From the NCBI GenBank assembly GCA_004193555.1, contig RPGP01000001.1:192114-256113 (forward strand): DNA of 64,000 bases. The letters run 5' to 3'. The stretch is from Desulfobacteraceae bacterium Eth-SRB1. Lineage in GTDB: Bacteria; Desulfobacterota; Desulfobacteria; Desulfobacterales; ETH-SRB1. The notes under the pieces are model-generated. The model was not told the origin of the DNA. It was given only the letters and a program-made list of their open reading frames with translations, and made no database searches. Shown piece after piece: positions 7,667 to 64,000 of this stretch (position 1 is its first letter; every line of letters begins with the position of its first letter). Position numbers and translations under genes: made by a program.

Positions 7667-8859
7667 ACTTTATGCCTTTCCCCGCCCAGCATAGCTCCTG
7701 CCCCTGCAAACTCTGAAATTTTTTGCGCAGCATCCTTAAGATTCTCAGTATAAATCGGCTTAAAGCTGGATTCAAAAAGAATTCTGCGGCCTTCTTCAAT
7801 GTTGGTTCCATCCATGCGAACTATTACAGGTATATTTACATCTATCTTTTCAGCAGCCTGAACAACCCCTTTTGCCAGCACGTCGCAACGAAGTATCCCG
7901 CCAAAAATATTTATGAAAACCAGCTTCACATCCTTATCGCTGAGAATAATCCCGAAACCTTTTTCAACCATTTCAATGGTAGTGCCGCCGCCCACATCAA
8001 GAAAGTTGGCCGGCGCTGCGCCGGCAAGCTTTATTATATCCATGGTTGCCATTGCCAGGCCGGCTCCGTTTACCATATTGCCGACATTTCCATTCATTTT
8101 AATATAGTTGAGATTAAATCGTGAAGCTTCGACCTCAAGAGGATCCTCCTCCTCAATATCCCGATATTCAAGGATATTCCTGTGGCGGAACATGGAATTG
8201 TCATCAATGTCTATCTTTGCATCCAGAGCAACAATAGATTCTTTGGATGTAACCACAAGCGGATTTATCTCCGCCAGGGAGCAGTCGTAATCAACAAAAA
8301 GCCTGTACAGGCTCTGAAGCATTCCAACAAACTGCTTCCAGACAGAAGATGTAAGTTTCAGGTCAAAAGCGATTTCCCGGCAGTGAAAGGGCTGAATCCC
8401 CAGATTAGGATCAATAAAAACCCTGATTATTTTATCAGGGTCTGCTGCAGCCGCATCTTCAATATCGATCCCGCCTGCCTCGCTTGCCATAATAAGGATT
8501 TTTGAAGTTTTCCTGTCAATGATAATGCCGAGATAGAGTTCTTTATCTATTTCCAGCTTCTCTTCCACAAGTACCTTCCTGACAAGCTTTCCTTCCCGCC
8601 CTGTCTGGCTGGTAACAATTTTCGTTCCGATGATGCGGTGTGTCAGGCTGTAAACCTCATCAGTCGATCCCGCAAGTTTGATGCCTCCGCCTTTCCCCCG
8701 CCCACCGGCATGGATCTGGGCTTTTATAACGACCGGAAATCTTCCGATTCTACGAGCTGTTGCCCTGGCTTCGTCAGGGTCAAAAGCGATTCCTCCATCC
8801 GGCACACTAATGTTGTATTTTTTAAATAATTCTTTTGCCTGATATTCGTGAAGCCTCAT
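7663..8859 (-). CDS. sucC: succinyl-CoA synthetase beta subunit
   Basis: The ORF starts [12 protein letters not shown] and has an ATP-grasp and CoA-ligase domain pattern. Confidence 0.9.
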
Positions 8860-8883
8860 TATCTATATTTCCTAAAAATTTTA

Positions 8884-9047
8884 CCACGGAGCTAAAGTAA
8901 CAAAGAAAGTTATAAGTGAGCTAAAGTGCCTAAAGTGAGCTAAAGTTAAGGTATGCGCCTTTGGCGCTGCCAATTCTATATAAAAAATGGAGCAAAGCGA
9001 CTCATTAACTTTAGGCACTTTAGCTCACTTTAGGCACTCGTAACTTT
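8884..9047. repeat. CTAAAGT-type palindromic element (A-type), copy 2
   Basis: The element is near-identical to 659-798 and is the reverse complement of 13461-13640. Confidence 0.85.
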
Positions 9048-11130: not shown

Positions 11131-11262
11131 TGCCTAAAGCGCCTAAAATATGTTAAAGTGCCTAAAGTTAAGGTATCGCTTCGCTCTGTTTTTTATATAA
11201 AATTAGCAAAATTCCATAACTTTAGGCACTTTAGCTCACTTTAGGCACTTGTAACTTTGCTT
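11131..11262. repeat. CTAAAGT-type palindromic element (A-type), copy 3
   Basis: The arms are gtgcctaaagcgcctaaaatatgttaaagtgcctaaagttaagg and taactttaggcactttagctcactttaggcac. The core is tcgcttcgctc. Confidence 0.8.
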
Positions 11263-14656: not shown

Positions 14657-14795
14657 AAAGATGAACGTCCAACATCGAACATTGAACGTCGAACATCGAA
14701 TAATGATGTCGCTCCGCTCCGCCAGTTTATAAATTAGCAGAATACCTTATTCAACATTCGATGTTGGACGTTCGATGTTCGACGTTCATCTTTTT
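14657..14795. repeat. GAACATC-heptamer palindromic element (B-type), copy 2
   Basis: Arms built of gaacgtc/caacatc/gaacatt units flank the core aataatgatgtcgctccgctccgccagtttataaatt. The right end supplies the mutase stop codon. Confidence 0.85.
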
Positions 14796-16906
14796 TCTAA
14801 AGCCTTCAGTGTCTTATTCGCCGATTCGGTAATAACCGTGCCGGGCCCAAATATGCCTGCCACGCCTGCTTTATAGAGAAAATCATAATCCGCGGGCGGT
14901 ATTACTCCTCCAACAAACACAATAATATCCCCGCCGCCTTTCTTTCTTAACGCGTCTATAAGCTGCGGAACAAGAATCTTGTGCCCCGCGGCAAGACTCG
15001 ACACACCAACGGCATGCACATCGTTTTCAACAGCCATATTGGCGGCTTCCTCCGGAGTCTGAAACATGGGGCTGATATCTACATCAAATCCAAAGTCAGC
15101 ATACGCTGTGGCGACAACTTTAATACCACGATCATGACCGTCCTGCCCCATCTTTGTCATAAGTATCCTCGGCCTTCTCCCCTCCTTTTCCATAAAGGCC
15201 TCAGTCCTCTTCCTGAGGGAAGCGATTATCTCGCTGTCTCCATATTCAGCAGAATAAACACCGGATATACACCGGCTTACAGCCACATACCTTCCAAAAA
15301 CCTTTTCCATGGCATCTGTGATTTCTCCAACGGTTGCCCTTGCTCTAACTGCAGGGATGCATACTTCGAGAAGATTTCCTCCTGATTCAGCACATTTCGT
15401 AACGGCCTCAAGAACCTTTTTCACAGCAGCGGAACCACGTTTTGCCCTGATCTCTTTTAATCTTACAATCTGCTCATCACGGACAGAATCTGAAACCTCT
15501 AAAACATCAAGCCGGGCTTCTTCTTCTATACGGTATTTATTTACACCAACAATAACATCCCTGCCCTGGTCTATCCTTGCCTGCTTTATGGCTGCGGACT
15601 CTTCAATTCTCAGCTTCGGCATGCCGGATTCAATAGCCCTGGCCATGCCGCCAAGCTCTTCAACCTCTTTCATGATCTTTTTCGACTCCCTGATTATTCC
15701 ATTGGTCAGGGCTTCAATATAATATGAGCCTCCAAGAGGATCCACAACATGACATATCTGGGATTCGTCCTGAACTATTAACTGTGTATTCCTGGCGATC
15801 CTCGCTGACAATTCGGTTGGAAGCCCAACAGCTTCGTCAAAAGAGTTTGTATGAAGAGACTGGGTTCCTCCAAGGGTAGCGGACAGGCATTCAAGGGTGG
15901 TTCGTATTATATTATTATAAGGGTCCTGCTGGGCGAGACTCCAGCCGGATGTCTGGCAGTGGGTTCTTAACATGAGCGATTTGGGATTTTTAGGTTCAAA
16001 CCTGCTTATTATCTCAGACCACAAAAAACGGGCTGCCCTTAACATGGCTATTTCCATGAAAAAATTCATTCCTATCCCGAAGAAAAAGGAAAGGCGCGGA
16101 GCAAAAGTGTCGATATCAAGCCCTGCATCAAGCGCTGCTCTGACATATTCCAGCCCGTCGGCAAGAGTAAATGCTGTCTGAAGAACAGAATTTGCTCCTG
16201 CCTCCATCATATGATAACCGCTTATACTTACGGTGTTGTATTTAGGCATATTTTTTGAGCAAAAACCTATGATATCGGAGACTATCCTCATGGACGGTTT
16301 TGGAGGATAAATATAGGTATTTCTTGTAAGATATTCCTTTAATATATCGTTCTGTATCGTGCCCATGAGCTTATCCTGGGGCACACCCTGCTCCTCGGCC
16401 GCGACTATATATCCGGCAAGCACAGGCAAAACAGCGCCGTTCATGGTCATGGAAACAGACATCTTGTCCAGCGGTATTCTGTCAAAAAGGATCTTCATAT
16501 CCTCCACAGAGTCAATTGCCACTCCTGCCTTGCCGATATCGCCAACAACCCTTGGATGATCCGAATCATAACCCCTGTGAGTAGCCAGATCAAAGGCCAC
16601 TGAAAGTCCTTTCTGACCTGCGGCAAGGTTCTTTCTATAAAATTCGTTAGACTCCTTTGCCGTGGAAAAACCTGCATACTGACGAATAGTCCATGGACGG
16701 CCGGCATACATAGTGGCTTTCACCCCGCGAACATACGGAGCAAACCCGGGAAATGTATTCACGCATTCAAGCCCTTCCAGATCTTCGGCAGTATAAAGCG
16801 GCTTTACATTTATCCCTTCCGGAGTCATCCAGTTCAGTGAGTCAAGAGGTTTCCCCCTCAACTCCTTTTCCGCTAATTCAATCCATTTATTTTTATCAGG
16901 ATGCAT
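14786..16906 (-). CDS. methylmalonyl-CoA mutase, catalytic domain fused to B12-binding domain
   Basis: Mutase large-subunit motifs and a C-terminal GQDGHDRG cobalamin-binding motif are present. The start is moved to MHPDKNKW at 16906 because the upstream 18 codons are repeat-arm sequence. Confidence 0.9.
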
Positions 16907-58098: not shown

Positions 58099-59190
58099 AT
58101 GACTATAAAACGTAAAAAAACGCGCCGGATCATGGTCGGAAAAGTAAAGGTGGGCGGAACGGCTCCTGTTGCCGTACAGTCCATGACCAATACATTTACT
58201 CAGGATATTCCGGCTACGGTTGCACAAATAAAACAGCTGGAAAAAGCAGGGTGTGAAATAATCAGGGTGGCTGTTCCTGACGAAGAGGCGGCCAGAGCAA
58301 TCTCTTTAATAAAAAAGCGGATTTCCATTCCAATTATAGCGGATATTCATTTTGATTACCGGCTGGCTATTGCCGCTGCAAAAGCCGGCGCAGACGGTTT
58401 GAGGCTAAATCCGGGAAATATCGGAAGCGCAGATAAAGTGAAGATTGTTGTTGGCTGCGCAAAAGATTGTAATATTCCGATTAGGATCGGGGTAAACGCA
58501 GGCTCTCTTGAGAAAGATATTTTAAAAAAATATAATGGCGCTTGCGCTGAAGGCATGGTGGAAAGCGCCATCCGAAATATCGAGATTTTAACGTCACATG
58601 ATTTTTTTAACATAAAGATTTCTTTAAAAGCATCCGATGTGCCCCGTACAATTGCGGCATACAGACTCCTTTCTTCAAAAACAGATTTTCCTCTTCATGT
58701 CGGAGTTACAGAGGCAGGGCCTCTCTATCCGGGCATTGTCAAGTCATCTATCGGTATAGGGATGCTTCTTGCAGAAGGAATAGGCGATACTATTCGTGTT
58801 TCTCTGACCAGAGATCCTGTTGAAGAGGTGCGTGTAGGATACGAAATTTTGAAAGCCTTACAGATTCGCCGGCATGGCCCTGAAATAATCTCCTGTCCTA
58901 CCTGCGGCCGTTGCAATATTAACCTCTTTGACATTGTTGAGCGTGTTGACAGGGCTCTGTCAGCAAGCACCTTGCCTATCAAGATTGCAATCATGGGTTG
59001 TCTGGTAAATGGACCCGGAGAGGCAAAGGAGGCGGATATCGGTATTGCAGGCGGTGATGGCGCTGGAATACTGTTCAAAAAGGGAAAGGTGATCAAAAAA
59101 TTTCCCCAGGAACAGCTTGTTGATGTTCTGCTGAAAGAGATTGAGCAGACTATTTTCACCACGGAGCACACAGAGACCACAGAGAAATAG
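58099..59190 (+). CDS. ispG: 4-hydroxy-3-methylbut-2-en-1-yl diphosphate synthase IspG
   Basis: The ORF has VQSMTNT and LRLNPGNIG motifs and a CPTCGRC cluster motif. The last 10 codons (TTEHTETTEK) are CACAGAG-repeat sequence. Confidence 0.95.
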   Translation: MTIKRKKTRRIMVGKVKVGGTAPVAVQSMTNTFTQDIPATVAQIKQLEKAGCEIIRVAVPDEEAARAISLIKKRISIPIIADIHFDYRLAIAAAKAGADGLRLNPGNIGSADKVKIVVGCAKDCNIPIRIGVNAGSLEKDILKKYNGACAEGMVESAIRNIEILTSHDFFNIKISLKASDVPRTIAAYRLLSSKTDFPLHVGVTEAGPLYPGIVKSSIGIGMLLAEGIGDTIRVSLTRDPVEEVRVGYEILKALQIRRHGPEIISCPTCGRCNINLFDIVERVDRALSASTLPIKIAIMGCLVNGPGEAKEADIGIAGGDGAGILFKKGKVIKKFPQEQLVDVLLKEIEQTIFTTEHTETTEK

Positions 59191-59770
59191 AAGGGGCATT
59201 CATGAGTGAAAATGGAGTTGTTCCGGTTTCTAAAATTGAAAACATTATCCTTGTCATAAGAGGATAAAAAGTAATATCGGCCCGTGAACTTGCAGAATTG
59301 TATGGAGTTACTACTGGGAATCTGAATAAAGCCGTGAAACGCAACATTGATCGTTTCCCGAATGATTTTATGTTTCAATTGACAGCGGAAGAATATAAAT
59401 CTCTAAGATTCCATTTTGGAATCTTAGAGAAGGGCCGGCATTCAAAATATTTACCTTACGCTTTTACAGAACAAGGGGTTGCAATGCTTTCAAGTGTTCT
59501 GAAAAGCAAGCGTGCTGTGCAGGTTAATATCGAAATTATGCGCGCCTTTGTTCGCTTACGCCGAATGCTATCTGTACACAAGGACCTCGAACGCAAGCTA
59601 ACTGACTTAGAGCAAAAATACGATGAGCAGTTCAAAATTGTTTTTGAGGTGATCAATCAGCTCATGACGCCGCCTGCGAAACCACGCAAAAAGATTGGGT
59701 TTGTGGTAAAGGAAAAGAAGGCTGCCTATGGCAAAAGGACAAAGGGAAGTAGGAAAAAGAAATGATACCG
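59063..59770 (+). repeat. direct repeat copy 1 (~0.7 kb: ispG 3' end + ORF6N gene)
   Basis: The copy aligns with 60960-61667 at a constant offset of 1897 nt. The first ~370 nt differ at about one position, and the 3' third is more diverged. Confidence 0.9.
59202..59765 (+). pseudogene. ORF6N (KilA-N-related) domain protein with in-frame TAA at codon 22
   Basis: The reading [59 protein letters not shown] has TAA at 59265-59267. The stop sits where family members have Q (IRGQKV). Confidence 0.65.
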
Positions 59771-59944
59771 GTTTTGTGTACGTTCAGCACGAATGTCCCC
59801 TTGGCCTATTGATGATACAAACTTATAAACTGAGGAACGTCCCATAGATTTCCCTTACCATTTTTTATTTCTTCGTGATCTTCGTGGTATTCAATTTCTT
59901 TTGATTCGCAAAAATTATTTCATAATTAGAATTACTGTCTTCAC

Positions 59945-59973
59945 TTGACAATAACGCCAAATGGCATTACAAT
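59945..59973 (+). promoter_or_regulatory. sigma70-type promoter of the Xre/RES operon
   Basis: The promoter is TTGACA (59945-59950), N17, TACAAT (59968-59973). GGGAGA lies 6 nt before the ATG at 60004. Confidence 0.55.
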
Positions 59974-60003: not shown

Positions 60004-60429
60004 ATGCCTGCAACCGCTTCAGCTTTACTTGGGAATGAATTAGAAAGCATACACATTAAAAATCCACTTGATATTATTAAAATAAGTCAAAACGGATTAA
60101 CAAAAGGGGCATTAACCCGTATAGGAAAAGTTCTGGCTCTTACCCAAAAAGACCTTGCAGAATTAACGTCAACATCTTTAAGAACATTCCAGAGATATGA
60201 AAACAATAAAAAGTTAAATCCCATTGTATCAGAAAGTATGATTCAACTTACTGAAATAATCCGCCTTGGATTCGATGTGTTTGAAGATCGTGATACTTTC
60301 ATAAAATGGTTAAATACAGTCAATAAAGCGCTGGGACAAAGAAGGCCGATTGAATTGCTGAAATTCAGAACTGGAAGCGATTTGGTTCGTAATCTTTTAG
60401 GCCAGATACAATATGGTATTGTAGCCTGA
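60004..60429 (+). CDS. Xre/MbcA/ParS-type antitoxin (HTH + DUF2384 toxin-binding domain)
   Basis: The C-terminal motif W...N.ALG.RRPIELL...G...V...L....YG is present. The gene overlaps the RES gene by 1 nt. Confidence 0.75.
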   Translation: MPATASALLGNELESIHIKNPLDIIKISQNGLTKGALTRIGKVLALTQKDLAELTSTSLRTFQRYENNKKLNPIVSESMIQLTEIIRLGFDVFEDRDTFIKWLNTVNKALGQRRPIELLKFRTGSDLVRNLLGQIQYGIVA

Positions 60430-60896
60430 TGAACGTATACCGTATCGGAAAGAAGAAATACATAAAGGACTTATCCGGGCAAGGAGCTCGTTTTTATGGC
60501 GGACGATGGAATTACTTTGGATATCGAGTTCTATATGCCTCCGAATCTATACCGCTGGCAATTTTAGAGTATATTACTAAAACAGGAGCTGTTGAAGAAG
60601 AACTTATAAATCTGAGTATAGCTTATATAGAAGTCAAAGATGACGCAAGTTTTTCAACTATAAAGATCGAGGATTTACCTGAGGACTGGAATACATATCC
60701 TGTTCCCGAAGATTTGAAGAAAATTGGGACTGATTGGATAATTTCAGCCCAAAGCCTGATTTTGAAGGTGCCGGCAGTTAGTGCACCTGATTCTTATAAT
60801 ATTCTAATAAATCCAGTTCATCCGGAATTTAAAAAGATAAATTTATTAAAAGTATCAGAATATCAACCCGATCTAAGATTGAGAAAGAAAAAATAA
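60429..60896 (+). CDS. RES domain toxin (NAD+-targeting family)
   Basis: The ORF has GARFYGGRWN, VLYASES and AILEY motifs and is 155 aa. Confidence 0.8.
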   Translation: MNVYRIGKKKYIKDLSGQGARFYGGRWNYFGYRVLYASESIPLAILEYITKTGAVEEELINLSIAYIEVKDDASFSTIKIEDLPEDWNTYPVPEDLKKIGTDWIISAQSLILKVPAVSAPDSYNILINPVHPEFKKINLLKVSEYQPDLRLRKKK

Positions 60897-60937: not shown

Positions 60938-61087
60938 ATGGGCGTCCCTCTGGATGTCCCTGGAATACTGTTCAAAAAGGGAAAGGTGATAAAAAAATTT
61001 CCCCAGGAACAGCTTGTTGATGTTCTGCTGAAAGAGATTGAGCAGACTATTTTCACCACGGAGCACACAGAGACCACAGAGAAATAG
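60938..61087 (+). pseudogene. duplicated ispG 3' fragment (last 42 codons) with a fortuitous upstream ATG
   Basis: Bases 60960-61087 match 59063-59190. The in-frame reading is MGVPLDVPGILFKKGKVIKKFPQEQLVDVLLKEIEQTIFTTEHTETTEK*. Confidence 0.75.
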
Positions 61088-61667
61088 AAGGGGCATTCAT
61101 GAGTGAAAATGGAGTTGTTCCGGTTTCTAAAATTGAAAACATTATCCTTGTCATAAGAGGATAAAAAGTAATATCGGCCCGTGAACTTGCAGAATTGTAT
61201 GGAGTTACTACTGGGAATCTGAATAAAGCCGTGAAACGCAACATTGATCGTTTCCCGAATGATTTTATGTTTCAATTGACAGCGGAAGAATATAAATCTC
61301 TAAGATTCCATTTTGGAATCTTAGAGAAGGGCCGGCATTCAAAATATTTACCTTACGCTTTTACAGAACAAGGGGTTGCAATGCTTTCAAGTGTTCTGAA
61401 AAGCAAGCGTGCTGTGCAGGTTAATATCGAAATTATGCGTGCCTTTGTTCGCTTACGCCGAATGCTATCTGTACACAAGGATCTCGAACGCAAGCTAACC
61501 GACTTAGAGCAAAAACACGATGAGCAGTTCAAAATCGTTTTTGAGGCGATCCGGCAACTCATGGCACCGCCTGCGAAACCACGCAAGAAGATTGGGTTTG
61601 TGGTAAAGGAAAAGCAATCTGCCTATGGCAAAAGGACAAAGGGAAGTAAAAGAAAGAAATGATAACG
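60960..61667 (+). repeat. direct repeat copy 2
   Basis: See copy 1 (59063-59770). Confidence 0.9.
61099..61662 (+). pseudogene. ORF6N domain protein copy 2 with the same in-frame TAA
   Basis: The 5' region is identical, including TAA at 61162-61164. The C-terminal third differs from copy 1 at several residues. Confidence 0.65.
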
Positions 61668-61702
61668 GAAAAGACAACATTCAATCAAGATAATATCATT
61701 AA

Positions 61703-61731
61703 GGGTCAAAGGCGGACCTGACCCCTTTTTT
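61703..61731 (+). terminator. intrinsic terminator after ORF6N copy 2
   Basis: The stem gggtca/tgaccc has a 10-nt loop and is followed by CTTTTTT. Confidence 0.5.
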
Positions 61732-61763
61732 ACAAAAAAATAAGTGTATCGTAGGAATCAAAT

Positions 61764-64000
61764 GTGAGTAACGAAACTGAAAATATGGATACAAAAATAA
61801 CTGATCGCCTATGTGAGCTTCTGGAGTATGTTCATCATGTTGGGAAGCTCAATCAAAAACCTGTTTTTAAAATTGATGACTATAAACAGCTAAATATATG
61901 GGAGCATCAAATTAAAGGGCGAATCGGTATACAGCATAATGTTGCAGATTCAGACGGAATACCTATTTGGTTAAGAATAGAGCGTTTAAAGAGGATATCT
62001 CCACCATCCATACCGGAACAGATACAAGAATGGATTAGCGTTGGCAATGATCCAGAAAGTCATCCACAGATCAAAGATAAATTAATAAAAACATTGCCAG
62101 AAAAAGAAGCTGAAAAACTAATAGAAGAAGGCATTGTTAGTGAGAATGACGTCACTAATCCGCTAAAAGATCAAAATATGGAATTAAAGTTAAAGGATGT
62201 AATCTTTAGATTAAAGAACAATCCAAAAATAAAGAATGAGATTGACAATTACCTCAATGAGCAATGGTTACCTTGGTCTGAAGAAGAAAAGCCACGTAGA
62301 GCAACTATAAAAATATACAATTCTCTGTTTAGCCTTCAGCAAACGATAGAAGCGCAAGGAGATGAACAACCAATAGAGCTTATATGGGGTATAGGAATTG
62401 CGCGCTGGTTGTGTGAGGGACATAAAATCGATCACCCGTTACTTGAAAAACCAATCGAGATTGAGGTCAATCGGAATGATGGCGCTATTCTAATACATCC
62501 AAGGAATACCGAACCAAGCCTTGCTATTGACGCATATTTTGCCTTAGAGAATCCCGGCATTGACGCATTATTGCGTTTTGGGAAGAAACATTTTTCTGAG
62601 TTATCTGAGGATGTGGAATTTTCCCCCTATATTCACGAGAGCTTTGAACCTGTTCTCAGGCAGGCATCAACCCATTTGAGTGAAAAAGGTATATATTGGC
62701 CTGACATCAATCCTGACAAAGAATATCGTGAGCCCAACAATGCAAGTGAAACGCTTGAAATAACCGATAGCTGGGTTATCTATGCAAAACCTAGAAGTGC
62801 AACTGGATTTGTACAGGATATTGAGCGGTTTCAGAAAAAGCTGGAAGAATCAGTAGATAACCTTCCCTATCCCACAAAAAGATTAGTAACAGAGTTGTCG
62901 GACAAAAAACCACTATTTACTGGAAGTGGAATCTTTTCAGGTGGTGAATCTTCGTTGTCACCAATACCCAGGAAAGAAAAATCCGAATTATTTTTTCCAA
63001 AAGCTTTTAATGATGCACAGGTACAAATAATTGATAGGCTTGAAGAGAATGATGGTGTAGTAGTTCAAGGGCCACCTGGCACAGGGAAAACACATACAAT
63101 CGCTAATATCATTTGCCATTACCTTGCAACAGGACGGACTGTTTTAGTTACATCAAAGGGTGAGCCAGCTTTATCTGTCCTTCAAGAACAAATACCCGAA
63201 GAACTGAGAAGCCTAACAATAAGCCTTCTTACAAATGAAAGGCAAGGGATGAAGCAGCTTGAAGCTGCTGTTCAACTGCTGGCGGGCTTGGTGAGTCAAA
63301 CAAGCTTAAGGGCGTTAAATCAAGAAGCGGAATCAAGCGAGTTAAGAGTCAAACAGCTTAAAAAAGAAATTAGAAAAGTTGATAGTGAAGTTAAAGAATG
63401 GGGGTTAAAACAACTGAAACCAGTTGACATGAAACTATCAGGGGCTATCGCTGAAATAACAGCAATGGAATTAGCCCAGCAGGTTATTAATGGTGCTGGA
63501 TGCCATGAATGGCTTCCAGATGAACTGGGATCATCTGAAAGATATAACCCGAAATTTTCTGATTCAGATATTGCCAGGATCAGAGCAGCAAGAAGAAAAT
63601 TAGGTAAAGATATAGCTTATGTTGGTAAGCGCCTGCCCAATCAACAGGATATGTTAGATACTGCAAATATTGTCGCAATCCATGACGATTTAGCAACATC
63701 TGTAAGAATAGCAGAAGATACAAAAAAGAACCATATTCCTCCTTTGGCGGTATCCGTGGAAAAATCGGTTGATCGTGCCAAAAGTTTGATTAAGCCGCTA
63801 AAGGAGCTTTTGGAACTTCTTAGGCAACTTGATGATTCTCAATGGCTTGGGAAAATATTTTATTCACGGATCGATAGCTCATTAGAAAATAGTGAAAACA
63901 TCGATCTCTTTGATGATTTGAAGTGTGACCTTTCCGATCTATCTCAGCAAAGACAAAAATTTGTAAAAATGCTTGTTGAGGTAAACGATCCATCCTCTTG
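61764..64000 (+). CDS. large Upf1/DNA2-like SF1 helicase (AAA_11-type), N-terminal ~745 codons, runs off window end
   Basis: The frame is open from GTG 61764 (or ATG 61785) to base 64000 by manual translation. It is missing from the ORF track because no stop is present. Walker A VVVQGPPGTGKTHTIANII is followed by TVLVTSKGEPAL and a long coiled-coil insert. Confidence 0.75.
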   Translation, partial: MSNETENMDTKITDRLCELLEYVHHVGKLNQKPVFKIDDYKQLNIWEHQIKGRIGIQHNVADSDGIPIWLRIERLKRISPPSIPEQIQEWISVGNDPESHPQIKDKLIKTLPEKEAEKLIEEGIVSENDVTNPLKDQNMELKLKDVIFRLKNNPKIKNEIDNYLNEQWLPWSEEEKPRRATIKIYNSLFSLQQTIEAQGDEQPIELIWGIGIARWLCEGHKIDHPLLEKPIEIEVNRNDGAILIHPRNTEPSLAIDAYFALENPGIDALLRFGKKHFSELSEDVEFSPYIHESFEPVLRQASTHLSEKGIYWPDINPDKEYREPNNASETLEITDSWVIYAKPRSATGFVQDIERFQKKLEESVDNLPYPTKRLVTELSDKKPLFTGSGIFSGGESSLSPIPRKEKSELFFPKAFNDAQVQIIDRLEENDGVVVQGPPGTGKTHTIANIICHYLATGRTVLVTSKGEPALSVLQEQIPEELRSLTISLLTNERQGMKQLEAAVQLLAGLVSQTSLRALNQEAESSELRVKQLKKEIRKVDSEVKEWGLKQLKPVDMKLSGAIAEITAMELAQQVINGAGCHEWLPDELGSSERYNPKFSDSDIARIRAARRKLGKDIAYVGKRLPNQQDMLDTANIVAIHDDLATSVRIAEDTKKNHIPPLAVSVEKSVDRAKSLIKPLKELLELLRQLDDSQWLGKIFYSRIDSSLENSENIDLFDDLKCDLSDLSQQRQKFVKMLVEVNDPSS

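Follow-up and report, generated by a model that had tools for sequence, protein, structure and literature searches.

A horizontally acquired helicase-nuclease gene beside ispG in Desulfobacteraceae bacterium Eth-SRB1 and its probable role in defense against invading DNA

The stretch of 64,000 nucleotides (nt) of the genome of Desulfobacteraceae bacterium Eth-SRB1 analyzed here (contig RPGP01000001.1, positions 192,114 to 256,113 of the forward strand; hereafter, the window) ends within a horizontally acquired, stand-alone gene that is predicted, by comparison with its relatives, to encode a helicase-nuclease of about 1,550 amino acids (aa). From the domain architecture, the genomic context and the likeness to the anti-phage protein Hhe, we infer that this protein probably functions as a single-protein defense system directed against invading DNA, either phage or plasmid.

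A giant helicase-nuclease encoded at the end of the window

Translation of positions 61764-64000 of the plus strand yields 745 codons without a stop, as stated in an earlier, first-pass annotation of this DNA made from the sequence by eye; the frame is missing from the accompanying list of open reading frames (ORFs) because it runs past the window end, and open-ended ORFs are not listed there. Upstream, the frame is closed by an in-frame TAG (61752-61754), so that the earliest start is the GTG at 61764. An AGGA sequence sits eight bases 5' of this codon. We favor the GTG as the start because its context, AGGAAT-N6/7-GTG, is common to seven close homolog loci, and the downstream ATG is missing in one of the homolog loci (L004).

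A search of 5.8 billion proteins retrieved 799 relatives, with a top identity of 85%, and a scan of the GTDB species genomes provided 21 loci for comparison. The complete genes encode proteins of 1,534-1,560 aa in the clade closest to the window gene (hereafter, the close clade) and those of distant members reach 1,959 aa. The window gene is 84.9% identical at the nucleotide level and 83% identical at the protein level to a 1,560-aa ORF in the locus of its closest relative (L001, 2005-6687), and judging from the length of the relatives, about 810 codons of the gene are expected past the window end. In the full-length relatives, the order of domains is an N-terminal domain (residues 1 to ~383), a Gly/Ser/Pro-rich linker, RecA1, an insertion of about 600 residues, RecA2 and a nuclease.

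The RecA1 domain of the full-length relatives is marked by the signature FFPKAFNDxQ, the Walker A motif GPPGTGKTHT and motif Ia, VLVTS. The window protein contains FFPKAFNDxQ at residues 410-419 (in the stretch FFPKAFNDAQVQIIDRL, residues 410-426), Walker A GPPGTGKT at residues 436-443 (nt 63069-63092, in the stretch VVVQGPPGTGKTHTIANII, residues 432-450) and motif Ia, TVLVTSKGEPAL, at residues 459-470 (nt 63138-63173); the motifs quoted in the first-pass annotation are all there, in the same relative positions, and the invariant family residues of the RecA1 region are all present in the window copy. Pfam matches begin only at residue 415, with AAA_11 (residues 415-637 of the window fragment) scoring 44.8 bits where 27 are required and AAA_30 and AAA_19 likewise above their cut-offs. 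Sequence matches in PDB include Upf1, SMUBP-2, Sen1 and DNA2, with E-values down to 4.7e-6, and are confined to the Walker A/motif Ia region. By these motifs and matches, the window gene is predicted to encode an Upf1-like helicase of superfamily 1 (SF1), subgroup SF1B, in agreement with the Upf1/DNA2-like helicase that had been recognized by eye.

Motif Ia is followed by an extended insertion that splits RecA1 ahead of motif II and that was described in the first-pass annotation as a long coiled coil. In an AlphaFold model of a homolog with 72% identity, this segment (about residues 499-1103) is entirely alpha-helical and consists of about 20 helices, with a predicted local distance difference test (pLDDT) mostly in the range of 80-90. 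Comparison of the 1,133-aa homolog model by Foldseek, which here and below covers PDB and BFVD, gave only weak, generic coiled-coil matches to the insertion, a local match to the RecA1 domain of Upf1 and no credible PDB match to the model. The insertion is thus predicted to be helical and coiled-coil-like, although a canonical coiled coil is not proven by the model.

In the full-length homologs, motif II, DEASQS, appears at about residue 1130, after which come VGDDKQVSP, EHFRC, QGKERD and NVALSRARDR. This RecA2 region with motifs III-VI is matched by AAA_12 with 56-74 bits in all 29 full-length relatives, and AAA_11, AAA_12 and MTES_1575 occur together in 29 of 29 full-length proteins in a census of those carrying the N-terminal domain. 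MTES_1575/DUF559, a Vsr-type nuclease domain, occupies residues 1414-1506 of the full-length relatives, with Pfam MTES_1575 E-values from 3e-29 to 1.7e-34 in every one of them, and contains the conserved segments IDLVVEG, ELDGDxYH and RQRxMERxGWxFWR, that is, the residue pattern D...ExDG..H...R..GW; no sequence in PDB matches this nuclease domain. A C-terminal nuclease-like domain of the kind anticipated in the first-pass annotation accordingly exists in the relatives. Downstream of the nuclease, a domain similar to the C-terminal domain of GreA/GreB is present in 15 of the 29 representatives (for example, at residues 1613-1685 of the L010 protein), and some distant members also carry DUF3320, a winged helix-turn-helix (wHTH) domain. 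The close clade, including the window gene, contains neither the GreA/GreB-C-like domain nor DUF3320.

Relationship to known defense proteins and helicases

Comparison with libraries of defense protein profiles yields consistent but low-scoring matches. PDC-S37 is the top PADLOC match for every member tested (197-250 bits), with lower scores for Hhe (87-134 bits) and for MkoA/MkoC (96-137 bits); among the NCBIfam models, ProA gives 218-278 bits with the full-length relatives and 49.9 bits with the window fragment, and Hhe 135-176 and 32.5 bits, respectively. The cut-offs of these two NCBIfam models are 1500 (ProA) and 2000 (Hhe), and the PADLOC models come without curated cut-offs. By sequence comparison, the present family is an unnamed sister of Hhe, ProA and PDC-S37, related to them via the helicase-nuclease core and a member of none.

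Hhe (NCBIfam NF042953, 'DUF4011 domain-containing anti-phage protein Hhe'; 'hhe' in Gao et al. 2020) is likewise one giant polypeptide of similar organization, in which a ~420-aa N-terminal domain precedes an Upf1-like SF1 helicase, interrupted by an insertion ahead of motif II, and a Vsr-type nuclease. Furthermore, DUF3320, which is located C-terminally in DUF4011-type helicase-nucleases, recurs in some members of the present family. However, the family scores about ten-fold under the NCBIfam cut-off of 2000, its Walker A signature is QGPPGTGKTHTIANI in contrast to GPPGSGKSQTITN in Hhe, and the proteins of the close clade are ~350 aa shorter and lack DUF3320. According to a preprint (bioRxiv 10.1101/2022.06.16.496414, citing Gao et al. 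2020), the single-gene system Hhe is active against lambda, T3, T7 and PhiV-1, and the mutation E1731A in its Vsr domain abolishes defense.

The match to ProA (NF058533, a model of 1,903 positions), the top one in NCBIfam, starts shortly ahead of Walker A and takes in the nuclease, whereas the first ~640 positions of the model are not matched by the family. The match to PDC-S37 (PDLC05009, a candidate single-gene system in PADLOC v2) spans the distal part of the insertion, RecA2 and the nuclease; no alignment starts before model position 296, and the usual start is at about 708, so that the N-terminal ~295 positions are never aligned. The scores are uniformly low for a model of 1,550 positions, and PDC-S37 itself is only a computational candidate. 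We found no paper describing ProA and no literature on PDC-S37. A further parallel in the organization of the protein is provided by the fusions of an SF-I helicase with an MTES_1575 Vsr restriction endonuclease (REase) and wHTH/DUF3320, an architecture that has been placed among biological conflict systems (Anantharaman et al. 2013, PMC3710099). The helicase-REase backbone and the variable, modular N-terminus are the same in these fusions, but the N-terminal modules of the prototype are HEPN and transglutaminase, whereas in the present family, this position is taken by a different, unannotated alpha/beta domain; the GreA/GreB-C-like addition in half of the family also differs from the prototype. 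With the eukaryotic SF1B helicases Upf1, IGHMBP2, Sen1 and DNA2, the family shares the motor motifs only, TIGR00376 being another model that matches; the accessory domains and the biological role of these helicases are unrelated, and the fused Vsr nuclease has no counterpart there.

The first-pass annotation placed the full system past the window end, which would make the gene one part of a multi-gene defense system with partners downstream. Related helicases such as MkoA, a component of Mokosh, do work with partners, and the MkoA and MkoC models match the core of the present family, but this match is restricted to the RecA core, and the family shows neither a conserved partner in the 21 loci, as expected of type I Mokosh, nor a PLD domain, the fused nuclease of type II. 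An all-against-all comparison of the ORFs in these loci revealed no shared neighbor family besides the helicase itself, and the genes immediately downstream in the closest loci are unrelated to each other, namely, a TumE toxin gene and then a carboxylase gene in L001, PIN in L009, a transposase in L004 and an RDD protein in L008. Given also that the comparator Hhe is a single-gene system, we consider a multi-gene system quite unlikely, and what lies past the window end is most likely only the remainder of the same gene.

A family-specific N-terminal domain

The N-terminal part of the protein had been described as about 430 residues lacking recognizable motifs. Indeed, residues 1-410 have no match in Pfam (even at E<=10), NCBIfam or PADLOC, although the length of this region is closer to 410. 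An AlphaFold2 model of window residues 1-415, built from an alignment of 52 sequences (pLDDT 84.2; predicted template modeling score 0.74), predicts an alpha/beta domain in which a 45-residue helix (154-198) is followed by a long beta-hairpin (204-235) bearing the segment ELIWGIGIARW...PLLEKPIEIEV (ELIWGIGIARW...HPLLEKPIEIEVNR, residues 205-237). The linker that separates this domain from RecA1 varies in length in the family alignment. Foldseek detected nothing credible for the N-terminal domain in PDB (best E = 0.15, template modeling score at most 0.12) and one significant structural neighbor in BFVD, A0A8S5P0T8, a 440-aa 'AAA domain protein' from the metagenomic contig Myoviridae sp. ctakU3 (E = 5.7e-4 over 199 columns), which could be the N-terminal portion of some related helicase.

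A profile of the domain searched against 1.84 billion representatives of 50% identity clusters yielded 1,496 matches at E<=1e-3, of which 696 reach E<=1e-10 and 309 reach E<=1e-30. The long proteins among the top 150 matches listed are 1,500-1,920 aa in size and carry the domain at or near the N-terminus.

A resemblance of this region to the N-terminal part of DUF4011-type helicases had been suggested by eye. Pfam DUF4011 was not detected in the window N-terminal domain (E<=10), among the 25 most-matched families of 52 members or in the 29 full-length representatives, and DUF4011 membership as defined by Pfam was rejected on these grounds. Nevertheless, hhalign comparison of a 205-sequence profile of the family with a 5-sequence profile of the DUF4011 group produced an alignment with E = 9.4e-4 and a probability of 22% precisely at the motif noted by eye. 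Window residues 179-264 are aligned to Hhe residues 224-311 around a core of ~80 columns, in which '...IY..LF..Q.E..G...ELxWGxGxxRW...PLxExxVEI' of the family corresponds to 'LRAIYGK...LEESGAN.LYLALGFLEW...APLFTIPVRC' of Hhe. The score of 35.9 compares with about 15 for reversed controls (E about 0.5) and with at most 18.4 in 29 valid column shuffles; one of the 30 shuffles was left out as a numerical artefact (score 134, E = 2e-17, over 10 columns at the extreme end of the template). The family profile aligned with the single Hhe sequence gives a probability of 0.13%, and the N-terminus of Hhe (the PGAP-annotated protein of a Klebsiella plasmid) has no pairwise or profile-to-sequence similarity to the N-terminal domain. 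On the other hand, a divergent Acinetobacter member shows four weak BLAST matches (E 0.06-0.47), each to another protein of the DUF4011 group, and these matches fall in the same region. Taken at face value, these comparisons point to a link that is at most remote, probably homology of a core of ~80-110 residues rather than membership in DUF4011.

Mobility, genomic neighborhoods and selection

The helicase part of the window has a GC content of 0.387 and a GC content at third codon positions (GC3) of 0.303, compared with a GC content of 0.432 in the window upstream of 58 kb and with GC3 values of 0.38-0.54 in the 39 other large ORFs located 5' of 59.2 kb; the impression that the region is richer in A/T than the housekeeping genes is borne out by these values. 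The GC content of the gene is 0.36-0.41 throughout the close clade, whatever that of the flanks (for example, 0.38 vs 0.60 in L003 and 0.36 vs 0.49 in L004), and conservation between the helicase loci extends to only ~50-75 nt 5' of the start codon. Close homologs with 70-83% identity are scattered among Desulfobacterota, Bacteroidales, Gammaproteobacteria and a sponge symbiont of Methylococcales, and a fragment from candidate division Zixibacteria is 79% identical. The gene is stand-alone, horizontally acquired and mobile between phyla.

This distribution bears directly on the possibility that the protein is a host housekeeping helicase-nuclease for repair or replication, of the Dna2 or AddAB kind. 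There are similarities of this sort, namely, a weak DNA2 match in PDB (E = 0.03) and matches to NCBIfam RecD, RecD2 and RecB (L010), but the latter are far below the cut-offs, and all of these matches, that to DNA2 included, are confined to the N-terminal helicase region around Walker A. More to the point, the gene is absent 3' of ispG in the host relatives (L031-L034), its composition is foreign, and its patchy phyletic spread conflicts with taxonomy. The conserved synteny among relatives that the first-pass annotation had named as evidence of a housekeeping role is lacking in the 21 loci. A housekeeping function therefore appears extremely improbable.

Many of the neighborhoods point to defense or mobility. 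In L001, the helicase gene is preceded by a CBASS-like pair (430-1855) that consists of a SMODS nucleotidyltransferase and a two-transmembrane SLATT_4 effector, and in L009, the neighbors are Fic, HicB and PIN. In L004, the gene is bracketed by two transposase genes of the IS256/Mutator family (8102-8971 and 14775-15455) in a composite-transposon-like arrangement. In L007 (9977-16148), it is split by a 481-aa ORF resembling those of insertion sequences (IS), with two paralogous copies (478 aa) in the same locus. On the conjugative plasmid pSF1 of Sphingobium, a methyltransferase and a BPTD_3080 REase adjoin the gene, with mobilization genes nearby. A divergent member of 1,576 aa is encoded on the plasmid pACI of Acinetobacter sp. 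LUNF3 (L035, 6809-11539), only 64 nt 3' of the BREX-1 gene brxL; a paper on the Acinetobacter BREX system makes no mention of the adjoining helicase. Altogether, the N-terminal domain was found on 32 plasmids, of which 23 are mobilizable or conjugative and 18 come from Acinetobacter, including A. baumannii AYE (NC_010404.1). The domain is essentially absent from phage genomes, where the only match was a trivial one to Walker A.

Given this association with plasmids and transposons, the gene might instead serve the mobile elements that carry it, through competition between elements (exclusion of plasmids or of integrative and conjugative elements) or in DNA processing during transfer, rather than in anti-phage immunity. 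The mobilizable plasmids, the IS256 copies in L004, the IS-like ORF in L007 and the mobilization genes on pSF1 all fit this possibility. However, the domain scans of the full-length members detected neither a relaxase nor a Rep or partition domain, many copies reside on chromosomes next to housekeeping genes, and the tested nuclease-helicase fusion of a like plan, Hhe, restricts phages. We regard a role limited to mobile elements as unlikely, and mechanistically, it overlaps with defense against invading DNA.

The ratio of nonsynonymous to synonymous substitution rates (dN/dS) between the window gene and its L001 relative is 0.147, with similar values for the N-terminal domain (0.138) and the rest (0.152), that is, the gene is under purifying selection. 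A decaying remnant or pseudogene would be suspected in this genome from the nonsense mutations in both adjoining ORF6N copies (see below) and from the IS-interrupted homolog in L007, with the 3' half of the window gene lying out of view. However, the 745 unbroken codons with all invariant family residues, together with the low dN/dS, make decay very unlikely.

Functional prediction and a possible mechanism

We favor, accordingly, defense against invading DNA by a single protein, and suggest a mechanism modeled on Hhe, with its loss of defense in the E1731 mutant. The N-terminal domain, perhaps together with the helical insertion, would recognize a feature of foreign DNA or a cue of infection and thereby lift autoinhibition. 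The SF1B motor would then translocate on DNA at the expense of ATP, with the 5'->3' direction assumed by analogy with Upf1-like helicases, and the C-terminal Vsr-like nuclease would cut the DNA being tracked.

Several considerations weigh against this prediction. The polarity of translocation, the substrate and the trigger are proposed purely by analogy. All matches to the defense libraries are far below the membership cut-offs and limited to the helicase-nuclease core. For the window copy, everything from motif II onward (motifs II-VI, RecA2 and the nuclease) is located beyond the window end, and its presence and integrity are extrapolated from the relative with 83% identity. The association with defense islands is frequent among the individual loci compared, but several neighborhoods consist of ORFans or of housekeeping genes, such as leuCDB in L022. 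In addition, we found no paper on the present family in the literature.

More tentatively, it is possible that these proteins comprise a large, unrecognized family of single-gene immunity systems, with at least 1,496 cluster representatives, for which PADLOC v2, NCBIfam r20 and Pfam have no model as such. Under this proposal, the N-terminal domain of ~380 aa would act as a new type of sensor and determine which trigger sets off a translocating Vsr-type nuclease, and the GreA/GreB-C-like domain found in about half of the members might be a sign of a connection with RNA polymerase or transcription complexes. Giant proteins that combine a helicase with a Vsr nuclease, such as Hhe, are known to protect bacteria, and their N-terminal modules are the obvious candidates for sensors of infection. 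The present family is a populous, highly mobile variant with a confidently modeled N-terminal domain that has no match among solved structures, and the homologs on clinical Acinetobacter plasmids should be convenient experimental models. Current libraries for defense system detection would catch the gene only via weak partial matches.

The variable slot downstream of ispG

The features of the 3'-terminal part of the window are collected in Table 1.

Table 1. Coordinates of the helicase-nuclease gene, its predicted domains and the adjacent features in the window
Feature	Position (nt)	Strand	Basis
ispG (GcpE), conserved housekeeping left anchor	58099..59190	+	Pfam GcpE E = 4.5e-153
Direct repeat copy A: 3' end of intact ispG and ORF6N pseudogene (59202-59765)	59057..59770	+	repeat comparison
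Toxin-antitoxin (TA) module between the repeats: Xre-like antitoxin (60004-60429) and RES toxin (60429-60896)	60004..60896	+	Pfam Xre_MbcA_ParS_C, Xre-like-HTH, RES
Direct repeat copy B: last ~135 nt of ispG and ORF6N pseudogene (61099-61662)	60953..61665	+	repeat comparison
Terminator-like hairpin GGGTCA...TGACCC with T-run, between ORF6N copy B and helicase; host-like flank	61703..61731	+	read from sequence
Left junction of the helicase cassette	61725..61738	.	blastn ends vs L031 and L001
Putative ribosome-binding site AGGA (61753-61756) and GTG start	61753..61766	+	sequence; homolog comparison
Helicase-nuclease gene, 5' 745 codons	61764..64000	+	open frame; cut by window end
Family-specific N-terminal alpha/beta domain (predicted), residues 1-383	61764..62912	+	AlphaFold model; profile search
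Gly/Ser/Pro-rich low-complexity linker, residues about 384-409, predicted disordered	62913..62990	+	pLDDT <50 at 384-415
Helicase RecA1 (predicted), N-terminal part	62991..63236	+	Pfam; PDB sequence matches; invariant family residues
Predicted all-helical insertion splitting RecA1 before motif II, first ~250 of ~600 residues	63237..64000	+	secondary structure of the P0004 model

The 59-64 kb region had been taken for the edge of an accessory or defense island beside ispG, and this interpretation holds, both by its low GC3 (0.26 and 0.29 in the two TA genes) and by comparison with the host relatives. In the closest of these (L031 and L032, with ispG P0121 being 92% identical to that of the window), a 144-aa gene, ispG and an intact 187-aa ORF6N gene are followed by different defense cargo, which consists of a 1,132-aa PLD/SNF2 helicase, a 67-aa ORF and a 1,113-aa MmeI/Eco57I-like methyltransferase (L031 11331-19073, and L032). 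In the more distant relatives L033 and L034, ispG is followed by hem genes, with neither ORF6N nor such cargo. Because the closest host relatives hold different defense cargo after ispG-ORF6N, the position 3' of these genes is a variable defense slot, and the differing contents of the slot in close relatives amount to a natural experiment.

The helicase gene lies downstream of the TA module, as the first-pass annotation had it, but does not directly follow it: the duplicated ispG-3'/ORF6N segment (copy B) is interposed. The two copies form a direct repeat of ~715 nt, with essentially no differences between the copies over the first ~480 nt and an identity of about 90% over the last ~230 nt. 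The same CAA-to-TAA nonsense mutation at codon 22 is found in both ORF6N copies (59265-59267 and 61162-61164; IRG*KV vs IRGQKV in L031), so that either ORF6N is a pseudogene that was duplicated after the mutation (or homogenized since) or a shorter product is made by restarting downstream. The ORF6N protein also matches the PADLOC candidate PDC-S05 (E = 1e-45). As a conserved partner of the helicase, ORF6N was rejected, given that it is found at no other helicase locus among the 21.

In blastn comparisons, homology to L031 stops at 59771 in copy A but reaches 61724 in copy B, 60 nt past the end of the repeat, so that the native right flank is the one next to copy B. The similarity to L001, the helicase relative, begins at 61739; since homology to L031 ends at 61724, the junction of the helicase cassette lies between these points. 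The ancestral gene order was, we infer, ispG-ORF6N-helicase, with the TA module entering later on a circle that shared homology with ispG-3'/ORF6N and integrated by Campbell-type recombination, hence the divergent 3' end in the copy that adjoins the TA module.

A near-consensus sigma-70-like promoter (TTGACA-17-TACAAT, 11/12, at 59945-59973) is located 30 nt 5' of the Xre antitoxin gene. Directly 5' of the helicase gene, nothing similar was found; the best candidate there, a 9/12 match at 61671-61699, lies ahead of the hairpin. The hairpin was rejected as a strong terminator, its fold of -8.7 to -11.3 kcal/mol being no better than that of shuffled sequences (z = 0.40). Finally, between ispG and ORF6N, L031 contains a 92-nt ORF6N remnant (11159-11250) that is 96.7% identical to window positions 61544-61635, which suggests a scar of an earlier copy and repeated recombination at the ispG anchor.

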